Source: Antedon mediterranea
Lineage: Eukaryota > Animalia > Echinodermata
DNA length: 64,000 nucleotides
Assembly: GCF_964355755.1 (NCBI RefSeq)
Contig: NC_092673.1
Span: 18,721,648 to 18,785,647, forward strand
Reading direction: 5' to 3'
The notes under the pieces were generated by a model. The model made no database searches and was not told where the DNA came from. It worked only from the letters and a program-made list of their open reading frames with translations. Both the position numbers and the translations under genes were made by a program. Shown one piece after another: positions 10,141 through 45,300 of the stretch; within the stretch, counting starts at the first letter, position 1; every line of letters begins with the position of its first letter.

Positions 10141-10176
<36 letters not shown>

Positions 10177-11437: not shown

Positions 11438-11734
11438 AAAACGTACCGGTATTGACACTGAGTGTACTAACAGCTACAGAATCGGGTGTATTTTCCCGAT
11501 TTTTGATACAAATCTAACAGGATTTTGAAAATTTAGTAGGCTTATATATTTGGGTAATGTACTACTAGTATGAAATTTCAAGATCGGTGAAGATATTCTG
11601 TTAAGATTGATGTTTTTTATTCAGTCTCTGTGTCATTAAAAGCTAGCCCGAACTGTCATTGGGATCACCGTTTGTCCAACCTGTGTGAGCTCATTGTTTG
11701 ACCGGTAGCGTCCCCTTGAAATTGGCGCGTAGTG

Positions 11735-18899: not shown

Positions 18900-18934
18900 C
18901 AGGAACTGTGAAGTAAGTACTGGTGACCACAAAT

Positions 18935-21900
18935 ATGGCGGAATTAACAGGAATTCCAATACCTACGATAGATTGGAAGGCACAGAATTTGCCGGAGGCA
19001 CTAAGAAAGTTCAAGCGCACAGTGACGCTGATCTTCGAGGGCCCACTGGCTGACAAGCCAGACAAAACCAAACTACGCTACCTCCTACTTTGGGTAGGCG
19101 AAACGGGACGTGACATTAAAGATTCTTGGAACCTGGCAGATGGGGACGAAACTCTGGATAAGCATTGGGAGAAATTTGAAGCATATGTCACCCCAAAATC
19201 AAACTTCCGGGTAGCACGATTTCAACTCCGAGCAATAAAACAGAAGGAAGGAGAAGCTATTGACAGTTTCATCACAAAAGCCAAAATCATACTGGCAGAC
19301 TGCGATTATACAAACAAGGAGGAACAGCTGCTAGACTGTATCATAGCCGGGGTTCACAATGAAACCACCAGAAGGAAACTCATCGCAAAGGACAAGAACA
19401 TGACGGTAGACCAAGCCCTGACCATGATCCGAGCACATGAGTGTACAACCCGTCAAATGAACGACATTCAAGAAGCCCAGTCCATGAAAAGCCAAGAGCA
19501 AACGGTCCACGAAATGAGATTCAAGAGGCATTATGAGAGACCACAAAAGCATGGACAATCGTTCCGAAATACAAACTCACACGGTAAGAATTTTCAAGCT
19601 GCTGAACCAATATACAATCACAACAAACATCCATCGCAGAGGTTTACCACTACAGGGAACCATAACAAATGTGGGCGGTGTGGTTATAACAACCACAAGG
19701 ATGGTGTCAGGTGTCCCGCAATTGATGCGCAATGCAACTCATGCAACCGCAAGGGACATTTCAGCCGGGCGTGCAGAACAAAGGGCATAGAGAAACAGAT
19801 GAAGGAACTCAGAGTGGAAAGCGACGAAGACGGCGACAATTGCGACCTGTTTGAAATGACAGAAATAACAATATCGGAATTAGAACGAGAGAGGGCCGCA
19901 AAAGGTTGGTTCCAGGAATGCCTGGTACAACATGGGTTTCCAGTATCCTTTAAAATAGATACTGGCTCTGAAGCCAATGTAATCTCATCTGATGTAATGT
20001 CTTTAATTGATGCTGAATTTCAGCGAAAATTGATAAAGAAACAGGATAGGTTAAAGGGATTTGGTGGCAAAATAGTCAAACCAATGGGCCAAATTCAAAT
20101 GCTTTTGAAAACTAAAGTATCAAAAGCAAATGTTGAGCAGATGCTAACATTCCAAATTATAAAGGGGCCTTGTTCGCCCATACTTAGTTTAGACTCATGT
20201 GAACAACTAGGCATAATTAAGCGGGTGGAATCCATTGAGAAAGAACAAGTAAATTATAATGCCAAAATCAAGTCACTACTAGAGGCAAACAAAGATTTGT
20301 TTGAAGGGTTGGGCTGTCTTAAGAACTGTGAATTCGACATTAAGGTAGACAAGTCTATACAGCCCAAGCAACTCCCACCACGTCAAATACCGCACAGAAT
20401 CAAAGATAAAGTTAAAGAGGAGTTAGAAAGAATGACCAAACTCGGGGTAATAGAGCGTGTTACTGAGCCCACAGAGTGGGTCAGCCAAATCACATCTGTT
20501 GCGAAGAAGAACGGTAAAGTTCGAATATGTTTAGATCCTAGAGAATTGAATAAAGCCATATTAAGACAACATTACCCAATGAAAACCGTGGAAGAGGTTG
20601 CCGCTACAATGCCAAACGCTAAAATCTTCTCAAAACTTGATGCCACATCAGGCTATTGGCAGCTCAAACTAACAAAAAAGGCGTCACTACTAACGTGTTT
20701 CAACACTCCTTGGGGCCGGTATAAATTTAACAGAGCCCCATTCGGAATAAACTCCATTGCGGAAGAATGGCAACGGGCAATGATAGAAGGTTTTGAAGGA
20801 GTACCTGTTAATATAATAGTCGATGATTTCTTAATTACTGCAAAAGATACCGAGCAACATTTCGAACGGCTCAAAGAGTTCTTAGACCGTGTGAGACAGA
20901 CAGGCCTAAAATTAAATCGAGATAAGTCAGAAATCAACCGAAGCGAAGTAGAATATGTGGGGCATCTAATCACCAGCGAAGGTTTAAAACCAAATCCAGA
21001 ACGAATTAGAGCCTTGAGAGACATGCCGAAGCCTGTAGATAAAGCGCAGCTCCAAACATTCTTAGGAATGATGACATATTTGGCAAAGTTTCTCCCTAAC
21101 ATGTCCAAAATGAGCGAGCCGCTCAGACTACTTCTTAAAAAGGGGAACGAATTTGATTGGAGTACTGCCCAAGAGCGAGCGTACAATGAGTTAATCATAG
21201 CTGCTACCACGGCTCCAGTGCTAAGGTATTACGATCCGACACTACCGATCACACTTGCCACAGATGCGAGCAACCACGGTTATGGGGCAGTCATCATGCA
21301 AATGAACCAACCAGTCGCATATGGTTCCAGGTGTTTAAATTCGGCCGAATTAAATTATGCACCAGTCGAGAAGGAGATTAACGCTATTGTATTTGGGTGC
21401 AATAAATTCCACCACTACGTATATGGTAGCACAGTGGTTGTAGAAACCGACCATAAGCCCTTAATTGGCATATTTGACAAGCCACTACACAAACTGAGCC
21501 CAAGAATTCAAAGAATGAGAATGGCACTATTAAGATACGACCTGAAACTAAAATGGGTGCCCGGTAAAGACAATGTAATCGCAGATACATTAAGTAGAGC
21601 AACCCTTAACGATAAACCAAAAGACAAAGAAGAAGACACGCCGTTAGTGTTAAGCATAATCTCGCAACTACCCATCTCTGATGAAAAGCTACAACAAGTC
21701 AAACTAATGACCAATAACGACGAAACACTCGCACAAGTAAAGACATTAATTCAAGGTGGTTGGCCGGAACACATTAAAACCCTAGCCAATGACTCGCCAG
21801 CAAGGCCATATTTTAAATACAGGAACGACCTCTCATGCTGCGATGATGTCATATTTAAAAATAATCAAATAGTTATTCCAAGAAAAATGCAAAAAGAGAT

Positions 21901-22990
21901 GCTAAAAAAGCTACATGCAAGCCACCAGGGTATGGTAAAATCTAAATCAAGGGCTAAAGGGATAATGTTCTGGCCAGGAATGAACGCCCAAATAGAAGAA
22001 ATCGTCTCACAGTGCGAAACATGCATGGAGATAAAACCACAAAGGCCAAAAGAGCCGATGATTCCACACGAGTTGCCAGATGCACCCTGGATTAAAATAG
22101 GAACAGATTTGTTTGAGATTCAGGGAAGGAACTATCTGATACTAACAGACTATTATTCGAAATTCCCTGAGATCATAGAAATACCAGATAAGACTGCAAG
22201 CTCAGTAATCAAAGCTACATTGGACGTCTTTGCAAGACAAGGTGGACCACAAATTATCATTAGTGATAACGGTCCATGTTACTCGAGTGAAGAATACTCG
22301 AACATGATGAAAGAATGGGGCATTAAGCATATTACAATCAGTCCAACCCACTCTCAATCCAATGGTCAAGCCGAAAACACTGTTAAAACTGTAAAAAACA
22401 TAATCAAGAAGTGCACTAAATCGAACGAATTGAGAAATACACCATTGGATGGAACATACGGATACAGTCCAAGCCAGCTACTAAATGGAAGACCTTTAAG
22501 GTCAAAGCTCCCCACTAAACCCGGACTGCTAAGACCACAATACATACCAAACGTATACAAGCAACTATGTGCTAGACAGGACAAACAAAAGTACTATTAT
22601 GATCAACATGCATCTAAGCCCATACCACCATTGAATGAAGGACAGAAGGTTAGATTTCAAAATGGAAACAAATGGGAGTATGGTACCATGACTAAGAGTC
22701 TTGAACAACCACGTAGTATGTTGGTAGAAAGCAGCAGAGGAAGAAAATTCAAAAGAAATAGCAAGCACATTTCTCCAACAAAAGAAAAAAGTGAACCGTT
22801 AGATAGCAGTAAGATTAGTAGTGATGTTGAGGATGAGCCTACTGAAGGCCCAAATACCACTGAGGTCACACCACACCAACACAGTATAAAAACACATAAT
22901 CAGAAGTATGACTCTGTGCCAGCGCGATCTAATGTAGTAATAACAAGGAGTGGGCGTGAGTCCAAGCCAGCTAAAAGACTAGATATATAA
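18935..22990 (+). CDS. Gag-Pol polyprotein (Zn knuckles, protease, RT, RNase H, integrase)
   Basis: Double CCHC knuckle CGRCG...H...CPA...CNSC...H...C, IDTGS, LDATSGYWQ, IVDD, TDAS, ETDHKPL, H...H...C..C, GTDLF / SDNG / E. Confidence 0.96.
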   Translation: MAELTGIPIPTIDWKAQNLPEALRKFKRTVTLIFEGPLADKPDKTKLRYLLLWVGETGRDIKDSWNLADGDETLDKHWEKFEAYVTPKSNFRVARFQLRAIKQKEGEAIDSFITKAKIILADCDYTNKEEQLLDCIIAGVHNETTRRKLIAKDKNMTVDQALTMIRAHECTTRQMNDIQEAQSMKSQEQTVHEMRFKRHYERPQKHGQSFRNTNSHGKNFQAAEPIYNHNKHPSQRFTTTGNHNKCGRCGYNNHKDGVRCPAIDAQCNSCNRKGHFSRACRTKGIEKQMKELRVESDEDGDNCDLFEMTEITISELERERAAKGWFQECLVQHGFPVSFKIDTGSEANVISSDVMSLIDAEFQRKLIKKQDRLKGFGGKIVKPMGQIQMLLKTKVSKANVEQMLTFQIIKGPCSPILSLDSCEQLGIIKRVESIEKEQVNYNAKIKSLLEANKDLFEGLGCLKNCEFDIKVDKSIQPKQLPPRQIPHRIKDKVKEELERMTKLGVIERVTEPTEWVSQITSVAKKNGKVRICLDPRELNKAILRQHYPMKTVEEVAATMPNAKIFSKLDATSGYWQLKLTKKASLLTCFNTPWGRYKFNRAPFGINSIAEEWQRAMIEGFEGVPVNIIVDDFLITAKDTEQHFERLKEFLDRVRQTGLKLNRDKSEINRSEVEYVGHLITSEGLKPNPERIRALRDMPKPVDKAQLQTFLGMMTYLAKFLPNMSKMSEPLRLLLKKGNEFDWSTAQERAYNELIIAATTAPVLRYYDPTLPITLATDASNHGYGAVIMQMNQPVAYGSRCLNSAELNYAPVEKEINAIVFGCNKFHHYVYGSTVVVETDHKPLIGIFDKPLHKLSPRIQRMRMALLRYDLKLKWVPGKDNVIADTLSRATLNDKPKDKEEDTPLVLSIISQLPISDEKLQQVKLMTNNDETLAQVKTLIQGGWPEHIKTLANDSPARPYFKYRNDLSCCDDVIFKNNQIVIPRKMQKEMLKKLHASHQGMVKSKSRAKGIMFWPGMNAQIEEIVSQCETCMEIKPQRPKEPMIPHELPDAPWIKIGTDLFEIQGRNYLILTDYYSKFPEIIEIPDKTASSVIKATLDVFARQGGPQIIISDNGPCYSSEEYSNMMKEWGIKHITISPTHSQSNGQAENTVKTVKNIIKKCTKSNELRNTPLDGTYGYSPSQLLNGRPLRSKLPTKPGLLRPQYIPNVYKQLCARQDKQKYYYDQHASKPIPPLNEGQKVRFQNGNKWEYGTMTKSLEQPRSMLVESSRGRKFKRNSKHISPTKEKSEPLDSSKISSDVEDEPTEGPNTTEVTPHQHSIKTHNQKYDSVPARSNVVITRSGRESKPAKRLDI

Positions 22991-26737: not shown

Positions 26738-27392
26738 AATCAGACAAGATAGTATCAGACAATTTGATAGCTATAAAGATGTATTATTCCCCATTTAAAA
26801 ATAATAATTCATTTTTTTTGTTGAATGCCATTTTAATGTCCCATAATAGGTATCCACTTTGACCAAAAGTTTAATTGAAAACATTTTTTTACCTGAAAAA
26901 AATGGTAATTTAAAGCAAAAATTAATCAATTTGGCTGCCAGCCAATGGTTTTTGTGTAAAGTGAAAACGTTATTTCTTTTCTTTTTTTTTTCTACAGAAG
27001 TGATTAACTTTATTAAAACTACAAAATAACCCGCTATTCAAAGTCTGATTTAATTAATCTTCATTTTTCATGTTTTTGGGTGACAATCTTTAAACAAATA
27101 TTTTAACAAAATGACATTGTTGTGAGTATCAGTAGCTGTATCTCAATGTACAAATATAATAAGCAAAAGCTAAATTCAAACAACAAAGTAAAACAGCCAG
27201 CATCAGAAACATCTATATTATGGTATATTACTTCAATAGGAATTTAGATAGTTTAGATAGAAATACAGATAGTTTACATACCAGGAAAGATTAAATGTTT
27301 ACCTTTTATATTTTCAGAAGAGAATGTGTAGGCTTTTATACTAGAAGCTATCGGCATTAATAATTGTTAAATGAAGACACTGTATTTTGAAA

Positions 27393-30300
27393 ATGGAAAG
27401 GTAGGTTTTTTAATTGTATTATTTCAAATCAAACAGATTAACCTTCAATTAATTTATAGTTTAAATGAAAAAGAAAACACTTTAAGATATTATTTTGAGA
27501 AACTTTTCAAATACAAACATAAATATTACAATTAAAGGGCCCATTTTCATCAAATATTTATTATTGAATGAAAGAAAGAAAAAATAAATGTTTACGTTGA
27601 GTTGAGTTGAAATATAATGATGATAATATTATTTTCATCAATCGTCATTTTCATAAAATAATGTAACACTTCATTATAATCTTTTATAATCATTTTAACA
27701 GGAACAAATTAGAAGAAGCTTTGCACAGGAATGATTTGCAAACAGTTAAACACATTTGTAGAACACAGCCAGATCTTGTGAAATCTATCAATGAGGTATT
27801 AAAAATATATTTTCATAATATTAACAAAAAGAAATTCTTTTCATTGAAATTTAAAATTGTTTACTACATTATTTAGCTGTAATTTTTGCTGCTGTTTATA
27901 TTGACAGAAAACCAATTTCACATAATGTCTGTTGTCAGTATTTATAAACTATATTATTTTGATTCCTTTCCAGGATGGGAACACTCCACTACATGTATAT
28001 CTGAGTAAAGTAATTCCTACCTTAGATATACTTACTTGTCTTTTAAATCATAATGTGTCTGCAGCAACATTGCAAAATAAGGTAATCCACATGGATTTGC
28101 TAGTGTAGTAGGCTACCATTCTCTGCAGTAAACCATTCTATTTATCAATAATGACAAATATGATTTTTTACTACATTATTTAGCTGTAATTTTTGCTGCT
28201 GTTTATATTGACAGAAAACCAATTTCACATAATGTATGTTGTCAGTATTTATAAACTTTATTATTTTTATTCCTTTCCAGGATGGGAACACTCCATTACA
28301 TGTATATCTTAGTAAAGTAAATCCTACCTTAGATATACTTACTTGTCTTTTAAATCATAATGCGTCTGCAGCAACATTGCAAAATAAGGTAATCCACAGG
28401 GATTTGCTAGTGTAGTAGGCTACCATTCTCTGCAGTAAACCATTCTATTTATCAATAATGACAAATATGATTTTTTACTACATTATTTAGCTGTAATTTT
28501 TGCGGTTGTTTATATTGACAGAAAACCAATTTCACATAATGTCTGTTGTCAGTATTTATAAACTTTATTATTTTTATTCCTTTCCAGGATGGGAACACTC
28601 CATTACATGTATATCTGAGTAAAGTAAATCCTACCTTAGATATACTTACTTGTCTTTTAAATCATAATGCATCTGCACCAACATTGCAAAATAAGGTAAT
28701 CCACAGGGATTTGCTAGTGTAGTAGGCAACCATTCTCTGCTGTAAACCATTCTATTTGTTTATCAATAATGACAAATATCATTTTTTTCTACATTATTTA
28801 GCTGTAATTTTGGCTGCTGTTTATATTGACAGAAAACCAATTTCACATAATGTCTGTTGTCAGTATTTATAAACTTTATTATTTTGATTCCTTTCCAGGA
28901 TGGGAACACTCCACTACATGTATATCTGAGTAAAGTAATTCCTACCTTAGATATACTTACTTGTCTTTTAAATCATAATGTGTCTGCAGCAACATTGCAA
29001 AATAAGGTAATCCACATGGATTTGCTAGTGTAGTAGGCTACCATTCTCTGCAGTAAACCATTCTATTTATCAATAATGACAAATATGATTTTTTACTACA
29101 TTATTTAGCTGTAATTTTTGCTGCTGTTTATATTGACAGAAAACCAATTTCACATAATGTATGTTGTCAGTATTTATAAACTTTATTATTTTTATTCCTT
29201 TCCAGGATGGGAACACTCCATTACATGTATATCTTAGTAAAGTAAATCCTACCTTAGATATACTTACTTGTCTTTTAAATCATAATGCGTCTGCAGCAAC
29301 ATTGCAAAATAAGGTAATCCACAGGGATTTGCTAGTGTAGTAGGCTACCATTCTCTGCAGTAAACCATTCTATTTATCAATAATGACAAATATGATTTTT
29401 TACTACATTATTTAGCTGTAATTTTTGCGGTTGTTTATATTGACAGAAAACCAATTTCACATAATGTCTGTTGTCAGTATTTATAAACTTTATTATTTTT
29501 ATTCCTTTCCAGGATGGGAACACTCCATTACATGTATATCTGAGTAAAGTAAATCCTACCTTAGATATACTTACTTGTCTTTTAAATCATAATGCATCTG
29601 CACCAACATTGCAAAATAAGGTAATCCACAGGGATTTGCTAGTGTAGTAGGCAACCATTCTCTGCTGTAAACCATTCTATTTGTTTATCAATAATGACAA
29701 ATATCATTTTTTTCTACATTATTTAGCTGTAATTTTGGCTGCTGTTTATATTGACAGAAAACCAATTTCACATAATGTCTGTTGTCAGTATTTATAAACT
29801 TTATTATTTTTATTCCTTTCCAGGATGGGAACACTCCATTACATGTATATCTGAGTAAAGTAAATCCTACCTTAGATATACTTACTTGTCTTTTAAATCA
29901 TAATGTGTCTGCAGCAACATTGCAAAATAAGGTAATCCACATGGATTTGCTAGTGTAGTAGGCTACCATTCTCTGCAGTAAACCATTCTATTTATCAATA
30001 ATGACAAATATGATTTTTTACTACATTATTTAGCTGTAATTTTGGCTGCTGTTTATATTGACAGAAAACCAATTTCACATAATGTATGTTGTCAGTATTT
30101 ATAAACTTTATTATTTTTATTCCTTTCCAGGATGGGAACACTCCATTACATGTATATCTGAGTAAAGTAAATCCTACCTTAGATATAGTGACTTGTCTTT
30201 TAAAGCATAATGTATCTGCAGCAACATTGCAAAATAAGGTAATCCACAGGGATTTGCTAGTGTAATAGGCTACCATTCTCTGCAGTAAACCATTCTATTT

Positions 30301-33300
30301 ATCAATAATGACAAATATGATTTTTTACTACATTATTTAGCTGTAATTATTGCTGTTTTTTATATTTACAGATAAACAATTTCACATAATGTCTGTTGTC
30401 AGTATTTATAAACTTTATTATTTTTATTCCTTTCCAGGATGGGGACACTCCATTACATGTACATCTGAGTAAAGTAAATCCTACCTTAGATATACTTACT
30501 TGTCTTTTAAATCATAATGCGTCTGCAGCAACATTGCAAAATAAGGTAATCCACAGGGATTTGCTAGTGTAGTAGGCTACCATTCTCTGCAGTAAACCAT
30601 TCTATTTATCAATAATGACAAATATGATTTTTTACTACATTATTTAGCTGTAATTTTTGCTGTTGTTTATATTGACAGAAAACCAATTTCACATAATGTC
30701 TGTTGTCAGTATTTATAAACTTTATTATTTTTATTCCTTTCCAGGATGGGGACACTCCATTACATGAGTATCTAAGTACAGTAAATCCTACCTTAGATAT
30801 AGTGACTTGTCTCTTAAAGCATAATGGATCTGCAGTAACATTGCAAAATAAGGTAATCCACAGGTATTACCTAGTGTAGTAAGCAACCATTCTCTGCAGT
30901 AAACCATTCTATTTGTTTATCAATAAGAACAAATAGGATTTTTACCACATTATTTAGCTGTAATTATTGCTGTTTTTTATATTTACAGATAAACAATTTC
31001 ACATAATGTCTGTTGTCAGTATTTATAAACTTCATGATTATGATTATTAGTATATTGGAAATTGACTATACTATAGTTATGTGCTTAAACCATTTGAAAC
31101 AAACTAAATTGCTCAGAAAGCAAATGACCCCCAGCCAAAAGTAATCTTTGTTCCCGCTTTTGATTTATTTCTGGTTCCACTCCTGGGTACCCTGATTTCA
31201 GTTCCATTTTTAATTTGTCATCAAAAAGAGCAATTATATATAATGTTTATTTCTGGTTCCGCTCCTGGGTACCCTGATTTCAGTTCCATTTTTAATTTGT
31301 CATCAAAAAGAGCAATTATATATAATGTTTATTTCTGGTTCCGCTCCTGGGTACCCTGATTTCAGTTCCATTTTGAATTTGTCATCAAAAAGAGCAATTA
31401 TATATAATGTTTATTTCTGGTTCCACTCCTGATTTAAAGTATACAGTTATCCATCAAATCAAACATATATCTTTTTTCTTAATGAACAAAAAAAATCTAC
31501 TTGTAATTTTTTATATTCAGGTGAATTAGTATAATTTTGTTTAAATATTTTTTACCATAAAATAAATATATATTGCTCATATGTAGCTGTAAAGATAACA
31601 ACAATTGAAAATGGTCTAATTAATTATAAATATGAAATAAAATTGGACAACTACAGTATGTTGACAAATAATAAAATAGCAAACAAATATGTTTGTGTTA
31701 TTGTTAACAAAATTAATAGAATCTGATTTTAATAAAAAAGAATTAGTAATTGTTAATAACCTGCTCCCTCCCTTACCTTCCAAAAAAAATACTTCTGTCA
31801 GTATATCCAGCTAATTACAGTTTGAATATGGCCTTAAAGAGATCCTTTTCCAGATTTCTTTTTTGCAAACATTTTGCCACAAATGGAAGAGAAATGTAAA
31901 TAATGTTTAGTTCATAGTGGTTTCCAAAATCTAAAAATGTTTGAGCAATGCAATTGGAAAAAGAAATTTAACATGAAATTATTCTTTTCAAACAGTGCCG
32001 TATCTTATCTTATGACTTTTTGGAAAAAATGATTCTATAAAGTTGCCAGTTAAAATGTTATATACTAGTAAGTGCCCACAGATGGTTCTCGAATACATGA
32101 ACTTTGGTAAATAACTGAAATTGTCTAAGTCGCACTGTATACAAAGCAAATAAATACAGATATGATGGAATTTATGTATTCAAATATAATTGTCATCCTG
32201 AGAATTACCTTAATTTTGTTTATTGCATGGTATTGTTCACCAAATTCCTATCTTGGTACATTTGATGATAGGATGGTATAAGGCTTCATGATATGATATG
32301 ATTTTCATCGAGGCCAATGGTTTAAAATAAATTTTTTATCGTTAATATCTAACTTAGCTTAATTATGATATTGGTTTCATTGGGTGTTAAAAATCAGTAC
32401 TGAAAGTATGTACCAACTTTCTCTACCATTGAGTATAAATTCTAGAAGTTGCACTTAATTTACTAAAATTTCCTATTACCTAAATTTATATATAAATTCA
32501 TTAAACTTCTTATTGGCCTCATATTTTTAATGCTGAACATTTGTTTGTACAATTTTATGAAATATGTATTTTATTAATGTTCAAATTTTGTGTTTGATAT
32601 TGTACAGTAAGTAGATTTAATGATTAATAACTTACATTAAGTAAATAGGCTAACAATCACTAGATCTGATCCATGGTAAGATATAGTGACGTAGTGTCTC
32701 ATTCAGCATGGGGCACCAGTAGCATTGCAAAATAAGGTAAATGTACAGGGATTTGCTAGTGTAAAGTGCTGAAGTAAAGCATTCAATGAGAGAAAAAAGT
32801 AAGCACATTAACAAAAATCAAATTTGATTAAAACAAACCAAATAAAAAAATAACTAAATAGTTATATATGATTTATGATAACTGATTTAAAGTGTACAGT
32901 TTCCTATCACATAACATAAATATTTAATTTTCTTAATTTTTATATATTCAGTTATTAATGAACAATTATTGACAATGGTCTACTTAATTGTAAATATGAA
33001 ATAAAATGTGACAACTACTATTAAAACAACTAATAAAAATTAATAGAATCTGATTTTAATAAAAAATGATTATTAATTAATAATGTGCTCCTTCCCTTAT
33101 CTTACAAAAAAATGCTTCTGTCAGTCTATCCAGCTAATTATGAACATGGCCTTAAAGAAATCCTTTTCCAACCTAGGATCTTTTTGTGCAAACATTTTGC
33201 CACAAAATGAAGAGAAATGTAAACAATGTTTTGTTAGTTTTCAAAATCTAAATTGTTTGAGTAATGCAATTTAAAAAAGAAAGGTAATACGAAATTATTC

Positions 33301-36300
33301 TTTTCAAACTGAATGCTTTTAAGAAAAGTTCCGTCTCTTATCTTGTGACCTTTTCGGAAAAATGATTTCTCGTTAAAATATAATATACTAATACTAGTAA
33401 GTGCTCACAGATGCTTCTCGAATACATGAACTTTGGTAAATAACTGAAAATTGCATTGTACACAAGGCAAATATATACAGATATGATGGAATTTATGTAT
33501 TCAAATATAATTGTCATCCTGAGAATTACCTTAATTTTGTTTATTATATGGTATTGTTCACCAAATTCCTGTCTTGGTACATTTGGTGATGGGATGGTAT
33601 AAGGCTTCATGATATGATATGATCTTCATCGAGGCAAATGATAAATTTGTTTTGATCGTCAATATAGTACACTGGTTTTCATTAGGTGTTAAAAAATAGT
33701 ACCAAAAGTATGTACCAACTTTCTCTTCCATTGTGTAAAAATTCTAGAAGTTGCACTTAATTTACTGAAATTTCCCATTACCTAAATTTATATGTAAATT
33801 CATTTAACTGCTTATAATGGCCTCATACATGATGTTTAACATCTAAACATTTGTTTGTACAATTTTATAAAATATGTATTAAATTATTAATGTTCAAATT
33901 TTGTGATTGATATTGTACAGTAAGTAGATTTTAATGATTACTTACATTAAGTACTTACATTAAGGCTAACAATCACTAGATCTGATTCATGGTAAGATAT
34001 TCTATTTTGTTCTCATTTATCAATAGTCGACAATTATGATTATTTACCACATTATTTAGCAGTAATTTTTTGCTATGGTTTGGGTTGACAAAAAAAACCC
34101 AATTTCACATAATGTTTGTTGTCAGTATTACACCAGCAACATTGAAAAGAAGGTAATGTACAGGGATTATACAGGGATATTTCATTTGTATCTGGATAGT
34201 ATCCAAATATTATTTGCTTTGAAAGTTTATAGTAAAACTATTTGTTGTTATGGCTCAAACATTTTAACACATCTACCTACTGTTCCAAAGTAAACTTTTA
34301 TTAAATTTATCTCTCTCTCTCTCTCTCCTCCATCTTTCAATGTTGAAGGCGGTAGACTATAAACGGCAGCGCTTAAGTTTTGGTTTGGATACAGGAGTTG
34401 GCGCACTGTACAAATTGATGTCATTTATTGGCAAATAGTAATTTCTATTCACGTCCTTATTTACAACCAATGTTAAAAAATAGTAAATCTATGTATTATC
34501 ACGTGATGCTCTTTCATCCAATCTCTAGATGGTAAATGTTTGAGCCATGATATAATACTGTATGTATGTGATGCATAATTAAAGTGTGTTATATTGTATA
34601 TCAATAATTTCTCAAAACTACTAATAACTAAACCCATTTTTTTAATAGGATGGAAATACACCTGTCTCTCTTTTAGAAAGTAACAGGCTGATAAGTGACC
34701 AAAGAAAAACTGAAATTTTAAACTTCTTAGAAGGTAAGTGAAGTTTTAATTATTCAAATTCTAGGATCAACTAGTTTCATTGCAAACGATAAAAATTTTA
34801 CTTCTCGTCCCAAGTGAAGAAGAATGTCCAGATAAAAAAAATTAACATTTATGATATATCATTCACAGGTTTATTATAGATTAAATAATTCAGTGGGATA
34901 GTAGTATACATGGAAGTTGTGATATGTTGCAAGATGTAAAAACCTAATTTTTTATGATTTGAAAATTGCAAATAAATTAGAAAAAATATTTTGCCATTAA
35001 TACGATAAAAATAACACAAAAACGCAAACTTTAAAATTCCTTTGAAATAAAAATATTAAATAAATCATTTTTCAAATCAAATCAATCTCTTTATTCAATA
35101 CATCAAAACAATACACATAACAAAAATAAAGAGATTTTAATGATGATGATGATTTTAAGATGAAAGGGACCTCCAATAAACCTCAAGGGGCTTTTGATAT
35201 TAGGCTTTACTTTAAACTAGTTACAATAATCGGACGGGGGACATGCATTGTTAAGGAATATTTGAACTTTATTAATTGCATGTAAATGTAGATTTTTTTT
35301 TTTTAATGTAATCTATTTTATATATAATGCTATGTACAATTGGTATTCGTATTCAAGGCAAACAATTTACGATAGGAGGCGATAAATATTGAATATAAAA
35401 ATCTAATCTTGTTAAATCCCAGTTTTTGTTTCCACAATGGATGAATTTCCTTCACACATTTTAAAGCCTGCTTAAGAATACTATTTTTCTGTATGTAAAA
35501 TTAAACATAATGCGTAATGTATTTTACCTTCACTCTTACAATTGTATTATCTTATACCAGGGGTGGATCTAGTCATTTTTATTTGAACTTTATTAAGTGC
35601 ATATAAATGTAAATGTAGATTATAATTTTTTTTTTAGATTGCCGATGTGGACCAAACAATTTTTTTTTTCTAGACGCCCGGAAATAGCATCTGAAGCGTT
35701 TTGGCCGTTCGATTCTTTTAGCTCATTTTCCTGTAAAATCGTTGTATGTAAATGGGTGGCGCGTCAATAACATTTAAAAGAATATACGACCCCCTCACCC
35801 CCCCCCCCCCCTAATTTTCCCCTGTATGTAACTTTCCAAGCAAATAGCACAATGCAAAGCAATACGGAGCAGTTAAATTATTGAAAAATTGAGCTTCAGA
35901 AAACAATAATACTATTAGTACACACAGAATAATAGAATATTATACAGATATTGCCTGCTTTGAGGTAAAATATAAGATTTGACCTCCCTGAGGGAATGAT
36001 ATTTTGTTCAAGGGAATAATACATTTCCAAAAGCGCATAGTGCTGAGGGAAATATATTCTATCGAACTAGATATCATTCCCCGCGGGATGTCAAATCTTA
36101 CATTTTACCGATATAAAAGGCGATATCTGTTATATTATATAGCCAACAACAAGTTAAATATTTACTGGGTCGGGTAGCTAGGCCTCCTTTATGTAATAAG
36201 CCTGCCTAGTTAGGCGTTGCATTCACCTTATCTTGCGAAGAATAATATACAGATAATTACTAATTAATGATTCCTTGGCAATAAAATATTCACTTAGGCC

Positions 36301-39300
36301 TAGGTTGTTTAAATTAACAGAAGAATTTCCATCAATAAGCCTACATTAATAGTAATTGAAGAATTTTATGAAGAACTCTATCAAAGCAGCCAGTCAGTGG
36401 ACCTTCAATTATCCATAGACTCGGAAGAAATTCCAGACATCACATATTGGGAGGTGCAGCATGCAGTCAAAAACATGAAACGAGGGAAAGCACCAGGACC
36501 AGATAACATTTTAATTGACACAATCAAAGAGGGGGAGGACGTCATTGCTAAGAAGCTGGCGAAGCTATACACAGCTTGCTTACATCAGGGGAAAGTGCCA
36601 GAGAAGTGGAAAGAATCTAACATGATCATCCTTTTAAAGAAAGGGGACAAGAGGGATCTCAAAAACTACAGACCTATTAGTCTTCTTTCAAACATATACA
36701 AGTCAAGTTGTTTACAAGAATCCTGACAAATCGAATGGAAAATTCACTTGATAGCCACCAACCCAGAGGACAAGCAGGGTTTAGGAGTGGTTTTTCTACC
36801 ATGGATCAACTGAACCAGCTCAAAGAAAAATGCCAAGAATACAACAAACCACTTTGTATGGCCTTCATAGACTATGAAAAGGCATTTGATTCAGTGGAGA
36901 CACAGTCAGTTCTAAAAGCTCTGCAAGATCAGGGAATTCATTATAAGTACATTAACCTACTCAAGGACATCTACACCAACTGCACTACCACAGTTACGAT
37001 TCACAAACCAAGCGAGAAAATCCACATAAAGAAGGGTGTCCGACAAGGCGATACAATTTCACAAAACCGTTTACAGCTTGTTTGGAAGGCATATTTCGCT
37101 CACTGGAATGGGAGGATAAAGGAGGGAATATCAATGGAGGAAAATTTTATCATTTGAGGTTTGCAGATGACATTGTTGTCCTGGGAGAGCAAATCAGTGA
37201 AGTGGAGGATATGCTTAAAGACCTTGCCAATGCCAGCAAATGCTGTGGATTGAAAATGAATATGAAGAAAACAAAAGTTATGGCAAATTCCATGGTACCT
37301 CATGGTTCTGTGACTGTTAATGGCAATAAAATTGATGAAGTAAATGAATATATCTATCTGGGGCAGAGATTTAGCCTGAGAGAAAAGAATCAAGAACAGG
37401 AGATAAAGAGGAGAATCAGATTGGGCTGGTGCCAATATGGTAAACTGAGCAACATCATGAGAGGGGAAATCCCGTTAAGCCTAAAAAGAAAGATCTGTAA
37501 TCAATGCGTGTTACCAACCATGACATATGGAGCTGCGACCTGGGCACTGTCAAATAAAATGGAAAAGAAAATAGCAGCAGCACAGCACAACATGGAAAGA
37601 AATATGCTCGGAATCACATATAAAGACAGAAAAACAAATGAATGGGTGAGAAAACAAACACAAGTTCAAGACATGAACTATCAAATTAAGTAAGTGGAAG
37701 TGGGCTGGACATATCAGTAGGAGAAGAGACAATAGATGGCCTTCGCTAATGACATCATGGAGACCGATGGATGGGAGTAGAAATAGAGGAAGACAAAGAG
37801 TGAGATGGCAAGATGAAATAGACAAGTATTGGGGTACAGTGCAGTGGCAGGGAGCAGCTAGAGATCGTGCACTGTGGCAGAAACATGCTGAGGCTTTTGT
37901 CCAACAGTGGACTGACAACGGCTGATGATGAATAGTAATAATATTATTATCAGGTAGGCCGAATAAATAATAATTCGTCTTCTTTGGGGACAGCGCGCTG
38001 CCCGTACCAGGTTACTACCATGAGTATTGACCAATAACAAACGATCTTTCATCGTGTCTAGGGAGGGCTAATAACAAATGAGGGCGCTATATATGCATAG
38101 TTTAAATAGTTTAGTTTATTAATTTCTTCAAGCAAGTTGCGTGGCGCAACGGATGAAGCGTTGTCTTGTAATGGTGTGACTAATCTTTGCAAGTTCAAGT
38201 CTCAGTAGATGACTTTTGTTTATTTATCGCAAAATTTGAGTGTTTCCACACGAAAATTACACTATATCAATATCTTCGTATTCGAGAAATTACTGGATTT
38301 TATATGTTTAATGACAGGGACACGATAATTACGCGAAAATTACTCAGTCAATATCATCATAATCGAGTATATATACAATTTACAATCCTCGCAGTGGTAG
38401 TCATGTGATGCAGTTTCAACCAATCACGTTCACGTATTTACATAGGCTGTAATATAAATAAATATTTGGCCTTGGTTTGGTGGTACTGTTAGTAGGACTA
38501 ACTAAAAAGAAAACCAAAACTGAATTTGAAACTTAAAGTTTCAAACTTTTATAGGCTAAGACCAATCATATAAACTTAAGTCCCATTATGGGCAATTGCA
38601 GTTGAGTTTTACAAACAGTGTTAAAGGCAATTCAACTTCAGTGGAAATAAAATGTACTTAAGTCAAATGTTTTGTACTTAAGTTGAATACAATTGTACTT
38701 CAGTGCAATGTATTTGGCTTAAGTTTAACTTGGAGGTAACTGATAAAATTGCTTGCCATATAGCAGTGATGCCTTATCTTTGGTTCGCAGCGTGTGATTG
38801 TTATACTGAATTCTGTGTGTATAATGTTAATAAATGTTTTGAATTTTCAATTATGTATACTGTTCAAATATGAGTGAGATATTCTTGTTTTTGTGTACTA
38901 GTCCCCCTCCCACAATACTTGACCCCTCTCAAATTTAGCGCTTGATGCGCCCCTGCTTCAATAGGATCAAATCCCCCTTGTCGTCCCCCTCCCCAATGAT
39001 CTGTGTCATGAATATATAAAAGTGTTGCCGAGTTGACGTGACTTTTTATATAAAATTATATGTAATTGTTTTGTTTTTGGTAATGTTTCAGATTTACCAA
39101 GTCCTGTTAGTGATCAATTTCAAACACAATTTGAGAAACTAAAGGTTCAAAAACAGAATGGTGAGTTACAGTGTGTTATATGCATACATATGATTGCAGA
39201 TTTAGAAAATGCAATGAAATAATAGGAATAAAGATTATTTCAATTTATTTCCAAAATATTATAACATAAAACTAATTTGTTAATAAATATAATTGCATAT

Positions 39301-42300
39301 GTAAATACATTGTAAAGTAGTTCAGTCATGTGGAGTCGAGTCATACGTTCTATTTAATCAATTTATCAATCTTATGAAATTAATTTACGTTCATCATATC
39401 TAGAAAGTAAAAAGTCTAAACATAATTTAAAAACACAGTGTAAATATCTACAATAGAATGAGTATTGTATATACTGTTCATATAATTATGAATAAGCTGG
39501 TGTGGTGTTGATACACAACAGAAACTGGCCATGAAAAGCTTTTTTGTTATGTAACTTTGCTATAACTATAATATATAAATCATTTCTGCATGGTATAAAT
39601 AAACACATGTGTATTGTGGTAGGAGACTGCATACAAATGAAATCACAGACAGGTTCTTTACTTCATTCGATATATATAATTTATTATCTGGAACATCAAG
39701 TCACATTCATACATACAGATGTTCAATATAGTTACGACAGTATCTGGATCATTTCACATTCATATATACAGAGATGTTCAATATAGTTATAACAGTATCT
39801 GAATCGTTTCACATTCATATATACAGATGTTCACTAATCAGCGTATACGAAGATTTAAGCACAAAACAACAATGTACAGGATTACAAATTCAGTCAAACC
39901 CAAACCAAAAACCCCTTGAGTCATCTGTCAAATAAATGGAAGTTCACCGGCTCCGAGCAAACCAATCTTCTCCGAGCAAACCAATCTTCATATCATATCT
40001 ATCCATAAACCTATTACAATATCATAAAAGAATTCATCATTATTTACCTTATACAGTAGTAAAATAACACTATCAATTACAAGAACGGGAACGTCCCATT
40101 CCGCCGCCATGTTCTGTAACTAGCATACCTACAGTATGCACACACGTGTGAATGACCATACATCATAATAACCATAATAAACCACATATAATATCACTTT
40201 CCTAGTTAATTAACATGGCAAATATAAGTATAGCAAGATTATCAATCAATCACAGTATCTTAGGGTATTCTACTATGATTTCAATGCAGGTTATCTACAA
40301 TATATTTCAACGTACGAAAACTACGCAGAAACCTTGTACATGTACCCTTATATAGTACAGTACCAAAAATACATCCGCGGCATAATATAGTTCAGTAAAT
40401 ACCGCCCTCCCACAGTATGATACATCAGGTTGAAATAAAAGAATTTGCATTGTGTAATGAAGACAATTGTGACAATGGCTATTTATCAAATACCATTAAA
40501 GTAATATCTTACAGTAGATTTCTATTCTGCAGATCAAATTAAGGAAGTGTTTGTGGGATCTGCTGGTGATGTGCTTCATCTTGAGGAGGCAGACATCAAG
40601 TTGGAGATACATTCTGAAGCAATTAAAGTGGAGAAAGTTAAAGTATCACTAGAAAATTGTTTTGAGGAAACAGACATGCCTGTACTTCATCCTCATGAAA
40701 CCATTATATCACCTATTGTTAAATGTGGACCAGAAGGCACCAGCTTCAACAAGCCCATTTCATTGTCATTTCCACACGATGCTGTAAATGAAGAGAATTG
40801 GGAATTTAGTCTACTTGTTAAAGATCGCATTGAAGATGAATGGAAACAAATTGAAAAGGATAAAAAGGACATACAGTTTACTTTTAAAAACGGTCGATGT
40901 TGTATAACATTAAATCATTTCAGTTTTTATGCACTAAAGGGTCATGTAAGAAATTTCTTTGGTAAGAAAAGAATGTTGTTAGGAGTTTTTGGAAAGATGC
41001 TTGCAAATGATGAATATCAACTTCAAACAAGACTTTTTAAGCCGTCAGATAAACAGGTAATTACTATTTGTTGTTAAACTGTGTTTAAATAAAGTAGTTC
41101 TTAATTTACTTACATTAACAAAATATTGTCAAAATATAGATATAATAAATAGTTGCTTTGTCATCTTATATTTGGTCAATAACATTAACCTAGAGTAGTT
41201 AATTTGGCATAATATTTATTCTCTTATTTTTATATGCCTTAAAATTATACAGTGTGAACAAATGCATTTTCTTGACACCTACCTTCAGACCTGGGGATTC
41301 ACAGGCACTAAATTTGAGCTAACTTATGACATATTTACGGCAGAAAATTCAAAATTATTTAAAAAATGATATTAATAAATCGTGTATTGAATTGATTCCT
41401 GATCATTATAAAATATGCTGTAAAGAAGTAAACATGATGATTGCATTGTACACTTCCCTCATATAATTAATAAACTAATATACACAGTCACAAATAACAT
41501 TAAGTATATGTATATATATATATTTCAGAGGATAATAGAAGAGCACAAAGAAATCAGTGAGAAGCCTTTAATAACACCAGTAGATATACTATCTATGTAT
41601 AAGGACATGAACATTACTGTAGCAGTATCAGAACAGGAATGGAAAGTTCATGAGAAAAAAAAAGTAGGAATATCAATATTTTTAGTAGATTGGCATGGTA
41701 AAGAATTATGCATTAAACATGTTTTTGCAGGGATACCACATAACTTGAGAATTCATAATGATAATTGATCAATAAATAAAATCTCTATTGCTATCCATAT
41801 ATTTAGCATACTGGATCACGATACTGAGTTAAGATCTTTAACTCTGTCTACACTGTCAAACTAGTTTGACAAAAAAAGTGTGATATATACAAATATGGTA
41901 GTGATATGCCCAAAAATGGTAGTGATATGACATCATCTTGTCCATATATAGGCACATTTTGTTTGATAGTGTAGACAGAGCTTTAGAATAAAAATGCTGT
42001 CTTTTGATTAGTCTCGTTGGAGGATGCACACTTTTAATTGCAGTTAGCCATTTTTGTATTTCTCATTGAGAGAAAAACTCTTTGAATGAAAGCATTATCA
42101 TAACATATAACACATAACATTATAAACAAAATTATTTTAAAAAAAATGTATTCACCAAAGCAATCAATTTAACTACAGTGCCTTTGAGCTGTAACTTTTT
42201 ATCTCCTGGCTCCTTTTTTCCCTTAGACTGTCACTGCTGAATACCTATGGCGTGGAACACCATTGAAGAATTTTCTTTTAAAAAGAGGTAATTCATCAGC

Positions 42301-45300
42301 AAAAGTCCTAAAGGCAACAGTATCACTGTCACAAGAGTCAAATGATATTGATCCAGTGGAAGTGAATTGTAAGTATTTAAAATGCAACAACAATTAAAGT
42401 CTAAATTTAGAATGATTGTAATAAATAAAATGTACTATTCAAATACGGTAATCAGACATTACCATCCATGACAATAACCACCCATTATTAACTGTACCAT
42501 TGTTAGAATATGGGGTGGAATCAATATAGGTGTTGGCTTGTTTTTTATCTAGCACTACAATACACTTTGGTTACATTGCTAGTTCCTAAAACACCTTAAT
42601 TCTTCCGCATATCAAGCAGAGGATTTTTATTTCGAATATCGGTTGGGTGTTTTTTTTTCTAATTCTTACAGATTTTCTCATCTTAATTTTTTTATATTAT
42701 TTAATTTCCAGTATAATATTACTAGTCAAGTTTTTCTATATATATATACACTATATATAAATCTGGTTTCTTTTTTTATTGAAAAAATGATTAAATATTT
42801 TATTTGTTATAGGTAATGTTGAGACATCAGGACCAAATCCAGGTATGTTATATTAATTGTGGTAATGATTAAGTCTGTTTTCACCTTGACCAGAGAAAAG
42901 GCATAAGCCAATACGTCTGAGGCAGATACTAGATGCAAGGGCTGCCAGCAGTTCTGATTTTAAATGCTTGATGGGATCTCAACTCCCAGACGGTCTCCCA
43001 TCCAAGCTCCAACCGGGTCCAACGTTGCTCAACTTTGGTGATCAGACAAGAAAACCAGTGTTTCAACATGATAAGGCCGTATCATATCATGTAGTGCATG
43101 AACAAACAAAAAAACAGACTACAATTTGTAGAATTTAATTCACCACCATTTCTATGGAAAATTATACAATAAAGAGTGCCCTTAAGCACCATTTTGTCTG
43201 GCACTATTAGCCAGATTTTATCAACTTTACAGGTTATATTCCAACCAATGTGAATAGTTTTATGGTAAGCGCCGGCAGGCATCTATGCCGCATGCCTATG
43301 AACATTTTTAGACCATGATACATTATAACAAATATATTTACTGTAATTTTTAGCTAATTTGTTCATCCCATGCTGGTACAGGTGTTCCTCCCAGTACAGG
43401 TGTGTCTTCTGGTACAGGTGTGTCTTCAGGTACAGGTGTTCCTTCCAGTACAGGTGTGTATTCTGGTGCAGGTGTGTCTTCTTGTACAGATAAACAAAAT
43501 TTTCAAAACTTTCTTTTATTTAAAAGTCGAAGATAGCCAGGTCTCGGGTCCATTCTGTTGTCGTCACAGATTGATATCTTCATCAGTACTTCTATGAATG
43601 GATGATTAGGTGGGAACACGAACGCTAGTTGATCATACCCAGTACCGTTTTGATCGTACGATTAATCGGGAAACCTCCTCACGATATATATAATATATTC
43701 TATATAATAACATTAAAATGTTTACTTTTCTTGTCACAGTTACATAGTAATATTTTTAGTTAATGGTTATAGTTACTCAATAATAGTATAATTGTTTGTT
43801 GCAGAAACAAGAAATCCATTGGAAGACAAGTTCAACAAGTTAAATTATGATCTCAGTGAAGTATTTATGAAGTATCAGAAAAGATATTATTTTTTGAGAT
43901 GTTGTCTCTCTGAGCACATTGCATTACAGGTCCTTGGCAATAGAGATTGCATAGCAAATGATTATTTCAATGAACTCTCTGAGAAAGGATATATCAAACC
44001 AACTGATGTTGATCTTTTGCTAAATATTGCAGAATTATCAGAAATTCAGGAAGCTAGAAATGTTGTAGCACAGTATATGAGAGACAACAATGTTAAAAAT
44101 ACTGATAGACATAAGTTGTCCCCATATAGGAAAAGATTGTGCAAGGCATTGAGAGAGTTTAACCCAAATGAAATCAATAAGATTAATGCTTTTTATCAAT
44201 TGGAATTATCAACCATTTGGGATGTCGCATTTGAGTTAGAGAGGAAAAACAAATTAGTGAATAAATCACAGAGAAAAGCGTTTGCTAACATTCTTGGACC
44301 AACTCCTAAGAAGATACTTGGTATGTACAATATTTTTTGTATTAAAAAATTGTCTCTAGAGTAGGTGTTGTTAATAAAAATATTAGTTTTTATGAAAAGA
44401 TTTTGCTGGTGGCCTTTATTTTACACTGACAATCTGTATTGATAAGAAAATACTAAAAGTACAGTACATTTTCTCACATCAGATCAGACCATATGTTTTA
44501 GTATGTGGCTGCCTTGAATGAAAACTTCAAAACTATTGCAGAGAAATTCATTTTTAATGCTAATTTATTTAAAAAAAATAAACAACAGACAAAATAGCTA
44601 ATAGTATTGTTAAAGACACCTTCCCTACAATTTGTGACGTTTTGTAAAAATAATACATACATATTACTTTAAAAACATTAAACCAGGTCATTCCTTGTCG
44701 TAAATGTACGTTTTATGGTAAATTATGATAAAAAGTGAGAAACAATGCACTACTTAAGTAGCTCGCGGCGAGTGACCTCTCGTAGTCGGTCTTTAGGCCT
44801 AGCCTAGCTAGGCTTAGTTTTGTAGGCCTAGCTGGTAAACATCGGTAACGTACGAACATCGTACGCTACCTATATACCTAGCCTGACGTCGTATAGTTGC
44901 TGCATTAATTGTCTTTCTATTTTTGCCAGACTCCATTGATACAAATTGAGGAAAACCCGGTATTTTCGCTGAAAAGTTAGGAGTCTTCCATTTGTTTTGG
45001 CCTCACGATCGATCGAAAAGTGGGTGAATTACATACGAAAAAAAAAAAAAATATCAATCCGCGCGCAATGCATTTTGCGATTTATAGCGGGCCGCTATAA
45101 TTATTAGAATCGGCTTATTTTTCACATTTTTAATCATTTAAAGACAAAAATTAGGACGCAATAGGACCATATAGTATTAATATTAAATATAGTTTGAGAT
45201 CTTAAATTAGATCTAAAAAATGTAGGGAAGGTGTCTTTAATGTCACCAAGTTAATTTAATGATAGATGATACCACACATACCGACATGAAATTATTAAAA

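Follow-up and report, generated by a model that had tools for sequence, protein, structure and literature searches.

Tandem single-exon ankyrin repeats at the head of a predicted ankyrin-ZU5-UPA-tandem-DED gene of Antedon mediterranea

Ten 108-nt exons, each encoding one ankyrin repeat, lie in tandem on the forward strand at positions 27974-30852 of the 64,000-nucleotide stretch of Antedon mediterranea DNA that was analyzed (the window). In our judgement these units were probably generated by recent germline unequal crossing-over and conversion, and are likely to form the binding end of a predicted intracellular immune or cell-death sensor of the order ankyrin-ZU5-UPA-tandem death-effector domain (DED). 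The locus is best read as part of a modular, immune-like crinoid gene family, with the sensor domain lengthened in the array gene.

Organization and divergence of the array

All ten exons are flanked by AG/GT and are of phase 0-0. They start at positions 27974, 28281, 28588, 28899, 29206, 29513, 29824, 30131, 30438 and 30745, the last one ending at 30852, and are separated by introns of 199, 199, 203, 199, 199, 203, 199, 199 and 199 bp, respectively. TRF delimits a forward-strand array of 10.3 exon-plus-intron units of 307/311 bp (27856-31039; 307-bp period, score 5679), both edges of which are located inside introns. Ankyrin repeats usually have 33 residues; those of the array have 36. Their identity is indicated by the TPLH motif and by a helix-turn-helix plus hairpin stacked between caps (Pfam Ank, DARPin alignments and a model of the related protein P0008, XP_071948777.1). 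Repeats within the array share on average 91% identity (minimum 78%).

Seven distinct sequences are present among the ten exons. Exons 1-3 (27974-28695; unit 1 Pfam Ank E 0.016) recur as an exact copy in exons 4-6 (28899-29620), within a 925-bp block visible as a 934-bp exact match at an offset of 925; a single base distinguishes intron 3 from intron 6. Exons 7-9 (29824-30545) are mosaics of variants found in other units, and the four-gamete test fails in 28 of 136 informative site pairs. Exon 10 (30745-30852; Pfam Ank at cut-off) is the most diverged, differing from the others by 8-14 nt, and is closest to two-repeat relatives (29/36 residues identical to repeat 1 of both P0008 and P0009, the latter XP_071947615.1). 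The ten exons have both splice sites intact and contain neither stop nor indel; the introns carry a 4-bp indel. The initial annotation had described ten 108-bp phase-0 exons with near-identical introns, units 1-3 repeated as 4-6, nine variable residues, and a frame kept upon gain or loss of a unit; exon and intron coordinates and TRF confirm the first point, the duplication holds letter for letter, all nine residues are present, and the frame is kept by the uniform 0-0 phase.

Each intron, if retained, gives a stop at codon 9, and with stops in every intron an unspliced ORF was rejected, as was the derivation of the exon from a transposon or satellite. When five further tandem arrays of the window were scanned on both strands, only two chance-looking AG..GT frames lacking homology support came up. 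The exact 22-base exon-intron junction pattern had no match among metagenome contigs. Segmental duplicates and dead unit remnants occur near the array: an older 1.1-kb intronic duplication with unit remnants (31597-34160, forward strand; 79% identity in a blastn self-comparison) and the decayed remnant of an ankyrin exon that belongs to another repeat type (32680-32736, forward strand), which has an in-frame stop, keeps its donor GT and ends in the QHGAPVALQNK form found in P0011, P0013 and P0014 (XP_071948802.1).

The introns differ by a mean distance of 3.2%. The exons show 11 non-synonymous and 7 synonymous changes (dN/dS 0.47, p = 0.16 against neutrality), and non-synonymous density (0.084) matches intron density (0.080; Fisher p = 1.0). 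Variable residues fall at repeat positions 3, 8, 9, 12, 14, 20, 25, 28 and 31; changes at positions 3, 8, 9 and 12 are restricted to units 9-10, and units 1-8 show only two versions of a set of nine surface positions. No positive selection on ligand-facing codons was detected in the array, which offers 18 changes only. Variation is biased towards the surface by a ratio of 2.3 in the array and 4.2 in P0007 (XP_071964198.1). The variability of the family is suggestive of a recognition surface, but the bias is equally seen elsewhere: eight of eight unrelated ankyrin proteins, each having at least six distinct repeats of 33 residues, show it (ratio 1.4-5.3, median 2.1). The idea of a diversifiable recognition surface thus fares differently at two levels. 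Inside the array, change proceeds at the intron rate without excess amino-acid replacement; since the lack of such an excess had been named beforehand among the outcomes that would refute the idea, it counts against it there, with little power. Among relatives repeat number does differ, and the family is most variable where helix 1 ends; binding faces are diverse from one paralogue to another, and also within older arrays, of which P0007 is an example.

Gene model, relatives and read evidence

The array forms the head of a stop-free 23-exon model, open over 952 codons and entirely on the forward strand, with the predicted protein order N-cap, ten ankyrin repeats, C-cap, ZU5 (HF/S at its end), UPA and tandem DED. 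An exon with the start codon (27318-27400, ATG at 27393) is followed by the N-cap exon (27702-27795, phase 2-0; 33/34 residues identical to P0008 and 32/34 to P0009). Downstream of the array lie the C-cap exon (34649-34733, phase 0-1; 23/28 identical to P0014), whose junction with unit 10 is predicted, and a linker exon (39092-39160, phase 1-1; 13/21 identical to P0014 and 12/21 to P0005, XP_071948765.1). They precede an exon encoding ZU5 and the start of UPA (40533-41056; Pfam ZU5 E 5.6e-18, HF/S motif at 40916-40924) and two UPA exons (41529-41663 and 42227-42368; family profile aligned to the ZU5 and UPA of UNC5B, E 4e-12). A Gly/Ser/Thr linker exon of 18-nt units, each bounded by AG and GT (43382-43453), leads to the predicted tandem DED exon (43805-44320, phase 1-1). 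An exon encoding HEPN_DZIP3 and a coiled coil (54138-54890, phase 1-1; Pfam E 7.8e-11) may continue the gene, as the frame stays open when it is appended by a predicted join. A candidate 45-nt exon at 60548-60592 was rejected for its two stops. No NACHT or NB-ARC was found among the scanned ORFs and exons of the window, past the end of which the gene may extend. ROC-COR is absent downstream of the array within the window and is carried by the upstream neighbour gene.

The close relatives of the array gene are all uncharacterized A. mediterranea proteins, including the five with RefSeq accessions given above. The same unit, 34-40 residues long (51 at most, in P0074), is found in 11 proteins of this species in 2-12 parsed copies, on backbones such as ROC-COR-DED, ROC-COR-ROC-COR and ROC; ROC-COR is carried by P0007, P0009, P0086 and P0117. 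Modules for N-cap, repeat, C-cap, linker, ZU5-UPA and DED are held in common with P0005, P0007, P0008, P0009 and P0014 at 48-97% identity. Compared as protein models, the relatives differ in repeat number (two in P0009 versus ten in the array gene) and backbone, while keeping the repeat framework. The array gene is a patchwork: its N-cap is nearest to P0008/P0009, its C-cap and linker to P0014, its ZU5-UPA to P0002/P0003 and its DED to P0005. The full ankyrin-ZU5-UPA-DED layout was found in no relative, and none of the relatives' models found joins ankyrin repeats to ZU5. In a structure comparison, the AlphaFold model of P0008 (pLDDT 85) resembles designed ankyrin proteins, the best match having E 0.004 and TM 0.66.

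The HFS at 40916 agrees with the HF/S or SF/S motif of self-cleaving ZU5-UPA proteins, and HF is followed by S, T or C in five of six ZU5 copies of relatives. These three residues are the nucleophiles named in the available text of PMC3210808. UNC5B has DQLG at the aligned site, and matches of the array gene's ZU5 to ankyrin ZU5 domains are weaker than those to UNC5B and ZO-1. The succession of ZU5, UPA and a death fold corresponds to the PIDD1/FIIND-type layout, of which the DED assignment is the weakest part. For exon 43805-44320, Atlas places three DED clusters at the top (0.89-0.90), at a level of recognition that does not reach the strong threshold, and the exon shares 41% identity with P0006, a protein with a Pfam DED match. 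The exon itself gave no direct Pfam DED match and only spurious MCM4 matches in a PDB sequence search. The structure model of its nearest relative, P0005, is of low confidence (pLDDT 41) and gave no fold match at E 0.001 or better, with the DED of caspase-8/cFLIP ranked first at E 0.01. The assignment of this exon as a predicted tandem DED is indirect.

Three predicted splices of the model are present in run X7, which is probably RNA (a guess), comes from another individual, consists of short contigs and also contains intronic pieces. Contigs of X7 join 27400 to 27702 at GT..AG, and one contig joins 27795 to 27974 (N-cap to unit 1), likewise at GT..AG, with a 22-letter side and 85% likeness; both joints are absent from X1, X5 and X6. 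Record 13 of X7 connects 43453 directly to 43805 and shows 3 differences over some 1060 letters. Three X7 contigs place an ankyrin-exon 3′ end directly before the sequence starting at 27974 and carry paralogue-type letters, so that a repeat-to-repeat splice is seen for a paralogue only. Neither such a splice between the array gene's own units nor the splice from unit 10 to the C-cap is among the joints listed. An internal-type array intron is also present in X7, i.e. in a second individual (record 28). At sites 28031, 28042 and 28048 both organism-B runs carry the unit-10-type letter at full depth and both organism-A runs contain the amplified type as well, which is only a weak hint of recent amplification because contigs drop variants. 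The array is collapsed in the contigs, and the contig depth in X1, 136 on the exon versus 8-15 on its flanks, is not a measure of copy number. Head-to-tail joints in X6 (sides 24 and 50) were rejected as proof of tandem units in organism B, because an identical joint arises from the sequence that follows unit 10. Shares near 0.2 in X5, X6 and X8 were given no weight on their own.

Origin and function of the array

Near-identical introns would let units mispair, and exchange would then add or remove whole phase-0 exons. Units 1-3 and 7-9 may have arisen, by single-unit steps together with conversion, from an ancestor resembling unit 10, with the three-unit duplication as the last step and an older repeat type decaying in the next intron. 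By analogy with PIDD1, NLRP1 and CARD8, the ZU5 would cleave itself at HF/S with both halves remaining together, ligand binding to the ankyrin solenoid would free or cluster the UPA-DED-DED part, and the freed part would recruit a DED-bearing caspase or adaptor. Amplification in the array gene would have altered length and probably avidity, not specificity.

A neutral, minisatellite-like expansion in a dispensable paralogue, in which the unit would spread as do the many intronic tandem arrays of this genome and be tolerated only because the exons are of phase 0, is an unlikely origin, albeit one with several observations behind it: the 45 TRF rows in 64 kb, the equality of non-synonymous and intron density with dN/dS not different from 1, and the dead remnants and segmental duplicates nearby. 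It is opposed by the point estimate of dN/dS, which is below 1, by relatives whose variation lies at the end of helix 1 within a preserved framework, and by ten undamaged exons between introns with an indel; the last point is weak evidence because the array is young. That the 925-bp block is a false assembly duplication, the true array having seven units, is very improbable. The 934-bp exact match would suit such an error, and no contig among those listed spans the array, but introns 3 and 6 differ by a base, and the array is real either way, as its exons comprise seven different sequences and an internal-type intron recurs in a second individual. We give least credence to the array as a splicing or somatic cassette system producing many receptor variants within one animal. 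Any subset of exons would keep the frame, and the accessible part of PMC11378527 reports repeat-exon splice variants in brown-algal ROCOs; yet with just two surface variants in units 1-8, skipping would alter length and little else, and the mosaic pattern fits ordinary meiotic exchange.

Germline exchange in a modular gene family remains our preferred reading. More tentatively, feather stars could possibly possess an undescribed animal equivalent of the shuffled-exon receptors of brown algae. In that case cassettes of one ankyrin exon, under positive selection in the helix-1 loop, would multiply, be replaced and be exchanged among clustered paralogues; their number would differ from one individual to the next, and they would be attached either to a ROC-COR GTPase or to a switch of the self-cleaving ZU5-UPA-DED type. 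The array would then be a fresh amplification whose copies have yet to diverge. To our knowledge, the genes of crinoid immunity have hardly been studied. The locus points to a modular family, expanded in this lineage, whose recognition module lengthens and is renewed by single exons; next to one another it shows the amplified unit, the likely ancestor of that unit and a dead predecessor. A single PCR or long-read experiment would suffice to type the 3-kb array, which lies between unique flanks, and would directly test whether the turnover of repeat exons in an animal is selected for recognition or only tolerated.

Comparison with known systems

Canonical ankyrins (ANK1-3) have 24 repeats, two ZU5 domains, a UPA and a death domain. 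The array gene, with 10 repeats of 36 residues, one ZU5 and a tandem DED, was rejected as their orthologue. The available portions of PMC5100051 and PMC10855541 contain nothing on exon-per-repeat ankyrins.

The likeness to brown-algal LRR-ROCO and NB-ARC-TPR genes, as far as described in the accessible parts of PMC3341825 and PMC11378527, comprises exons of equal length and symmetric phase that each encode a single repeat, intronic remnants of inactivated repeat exons (one clear case here, at 32680-32736) and clustered paralogues. The ROCO comparison drawn in the initial annotation is apt, given that relatives put the same repeat on ROC-COR. The array gene is, however, an animal gene whose ankyrin repeats precede ZU5-UPA-tandem DED, whereas the algal repeats are LRR or TPR on ROC-COR or NB-ARC, LRR and ROC-COR being joined in one protein. 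Positive selection is reported for the algal repeat-exon genes; none was detected in the array.

Fungal NLRs with ANK, TPR or WD repeats (PMC4986451, available text) exceed 85% internal identity across 100 residues or more, as does the array, and their concerted evolution with hairpin and inner-helix variation finds a family-level likeness here. Within-species repeat-number polymorphism and positive selection are described there for Podospora. Unlike those genes, the array gene shows no NACHT/NB-ARC in the window, and its repeats are N-terminal, each in its own exon. In Argiope MaSp2 silk genes (PMC9779670, available text) exon-intron units are copied together, introns are about 97% alike and higher-order repeats occur, as in the array; MaSp2 is a structural fibre protein, whereas the array encodes a folded binding repeat in a signalling-type protein.

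PIDD1, NLRP1 and CARD8, as presented in the accessible part of PMC3210808, and UNC5B resemble the array gene in the succession of a ZU5 ending in HF/S (DQLG at that site in UNC5B), a UPA and a death-fold module. It differs from PIDD1, NLRP1 and CARD8 in its ankyrin sensor, single ZU5 and tandem DED in place of a DD or CARD; the likeness is claimed for the layout only. The ankyrin-ZU5(HF/S)-UPA-tandem-DED layout predicted here would extend the PIDD/NLRP1-type logic of self-cleavage to DED signalling.

Array structure and gene model

The initial annotation described one ankyrin repeat per exon with homogenised introns, and all details of the array that were checked agree. Ten 108-nt exons, separated by introns of 199 or 203 nt, occupy positions 27974-30852, and each encodes one 36-residue ankyrin repeat. 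Exons 4-6 are identical to exons 1-3 (934-bp exact match, offset 925). The repeated unit of 307 bp, present in 10.3 copies, spans 27856-31039 and both edges are intronic; retention of any array intron creates a stop at codon 9. Pfam ankyrin matches were obtained for unit 1 (E 0.016) and for unit 10, the last and most diverged (E 0.0004). At an E-value cut-off of 0.01 the array repeat matches 75 PDB sequences, the best 60 of which are without exception DARPins, designed repeats or fusions of these.

A walk over AG/GT-bounded exons yielded a 23-exon model running from the ATG at 27393 to 47436 (952 codons, no stops), which encodes, in order, an N-cap (27702..27795), the ten repeats, a C-cap (34649..34733), a linker, ZU5 (E 5.6e-18), UPA, further linkers and a 171-residue helical exon. 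The modules are connected by phase-1 introns, and UPA was recognized through a family profile aligning to ZU5 plus UPA of UNC5B (E 4e-12). The ZU5 domain ends with HFS (40916), where the aligned UNC5B site is DQLG; HFS, HFT or HFC occurs in five of six ZU5 copies of relatives. Self-cleavage of PIDD is described at HF/S, the nucleophile in such reactions being Ser, Thr or Cys (PMC3210808).

The 171-residue exon is best read as a predicted tandem DED. Its three top clusters in an atlas search are all DED, it shares 41% identity with a relative carrying a Pfam DED, and a low-confidence model of the paralogue P0005 ranked caspase-8/cFLIP first and UNC5B second; the exon itself gave no direct Pfam DED match. 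Since six more exons of phase 1-1, one of them a HEPN_DZIP3 exon (54138-54890), leave the frame open to 60416, the gene may extend beyond 47436 toward that position.

Relatives and genomic neighbourhood

All six matches to the ZU5 exon and all four to the ankyrin repeat were Antedon mediterranea models, as were five of the best six among 63 matches in a profile search. At least three further models of this species with the repeat are among the 120 matches listed, and no other crinoid or echinoderm with this repeat type was named among the matches listed. The repeat is present in eleven proteins, with 2 to 12 parsed copies each (several models are fragments), on backbones that include ROC-COR-DED (P0007, P0086), ROC-COR-ROC-COR (P0009) and ROC (P0014). 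P0009 has two repeats, the first being identical to unit 10 at 29/36 residues, and its N-cap matches that of the array gene at 32/34. The C-cap and linker are nearest to P0014, and a dead exon (32680-32736) is a remnant of that protein's repeat type. The dead exon keeps its donor, and an AG within it would allow an in-frame, stop-free mini-exon of 42 nt (32695-32736), although the pyrimidine tract is poor. The AlphaFold model of the relative P0008 (pLDDT 85, pTM 0.79) resembles designed ankyrin proteins. P0007, P0074, P0086 and P0117 contain long Pro/Glu/Thr repeat linkers of low complexity as well as identical ankyrin repeats next to one another; amplification of repeats is therefore recurrent in the family.

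The upstream neighbour is a ROCO-family paralogue whose 3′ end occupies 214-6105 and 10092-10727, which places the array gene in a tandem cluster of its family. This end encodes a COR tail matching P0009 at 56/81 and 76/104 residues, after which comes a tandem-DED-like exon (116/174 to P0001), and its small linker exons are duplicated. Between the two family genes lie what we take from their motifs to be a LINE that seems intact (11720-15770; ORF1 plus an ORF2 of 949 residues) and a Gypsy-like gag-pol of 1357 residues (18917-22990). A 372-bp tandem unit (8375-10155, 4.8 copies) with an internal tRNA-like segment is probably SINE-derived. Segmental duplicates within the locus comprise 45529-47368/60774-62620 (96%) and 44358-45524/50070-51545 (84-89%), and include a truncated copy of the end of the DED exon, adjoining a LINE fragment. 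A LINE fragment at 36343-37936 is skipped by contigs in sequencing runs X7 and X6, as would fit a site that is empty there or a flanking repeat with copies elsewhere.

Transcripts and other individuals

Eight runs contain part of the window; four were compared over 27200-28160 and two over 30700-46300, stretches containing one array unit apiece. In X7, probably an RNA run and taken from a different individual under the same organism label, exon 1-exon 2 and exon 2-unit 1 are joined at GT..AG, the latter in a single contig with a 22-letter side and 85% likeness; both joints are absent in X1, X5 and X6. Three X7 contigs carry an ankyrin-exon 3′ end immediately before a unit start, with paralogue-type letters, and record 13 joins 43453-43805 at near-full identity with the upstream intron retained. 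No unit 10-C-cap joint was found among the 15 joints listed (206 further joints). An 18-nt coding minisatellite (43382-43490) has AG|GT at every unit boundary, giving several in-frame donors and acceptors, and X7 splices from a donor after 43453, within this region. The HEPN_DZIP3 exon is accompanied by a series of phase 1-1 acidic linker exons (54138-54890, 57553-60416, 61451-61475); one X7 joint places letters of the 60330-60416 exon beside the 25-nt exon type, which suggests that these exons are spliced.

X7 record 28 is an internal-type array intron, which shows that a second individual also has units in tandem. At three exon positions that distinguish the unit types, the two organism-B runs have only unit-10-type letters and the two organism-A runs carry amplified-type letters too, a weak hint of lineage-recent amplification because contigs show presence, not absence.

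Surface variation, origin and known systems

The proposal of a diversifiable recognition surface was supported in part. The binding surface is not diversified inside the array: 11 non-synonymous changes (83 sites) and 7 synonymous changes (25 sites) give a dN/dS of 0.47 (p = 0.16 against neutrality), the non-synonymous density of units 1-9 is 0.084 versus 0.080 in introns, and nine surface positions exist in two versions in units 1-8 and in four in all ten. In 10 relatives, the 25 distinct repeats (27 parsed; 12 repeats of the divergent P0074 excluded) have an entropy of 2.64 bits at positions 3 and 11-14 versus 0.95 elsewhere, with loop lengths of 3-9, although the positions were picked after the sequences had been viewed, the repeats are related by descent and loop-length differences inflate entropy. 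In P0007 alone the values are 1.59 and 0.39. The same positions vary among the matched DARPin repeats; DARPins are described as binding via randomised concave-face positions (PMC8229355). A surface bias was seen in all eight unrelated control ankyrin proteins with at least six distinct 33-residue repeats (ratio 1.4-5.3), compared with 4.2 in P0007 and 2.3 in the array. The family-level pattern fits recognition but is no proof of selection.

Duplication involves complete exon-intron units, one three-unit block being exact, and the four-gamete test fails for 28 of 136 informative site pairs. The near-identical units would have arisen through unequal crossing-over and conversion between them, unit 10 may be what remains of an originally short ankyrin head, and an older repeat type was presumably replaced. 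Neutral expansion of the array is a serious, though less probable, rival. A repetitive ligand would be well matched by eight near-identical faces; alternatively, these are simply substrate for divergence that has yet to occur. Judged by architecture alone, the protein would be a cytosolic sensor whose ankyrin repeats sit on a putatively self-cleaving ZU5-UPA, the DEDs providing the output. In marine invertebrates, expanded sets of DED proteins that also contain ankyrin, HEPN, GTPase and ZU5 modules have been interpreted as immune (PMC8195603).

No literature on this crinoid family was found among the titles listed, which include no subscription journals; supplementary crinoid gene-family tables could mention it. 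In vertebrate ankyrin genes one repeat is encoded per exon. At the DNA level the array gene resembles brown-algal ROCOs, described as having exon-per-repeat shuffling (PMC3341825, PMC11378527), fungal NLRs, with homogenised ankyrin repeats polymorphic in number (PMC4986451), and spider silk genes, with iterated homogenised introns (PMC9779670), but its domain content bars membership in any of the three. The array itself is confirmed, and each element has precedent.
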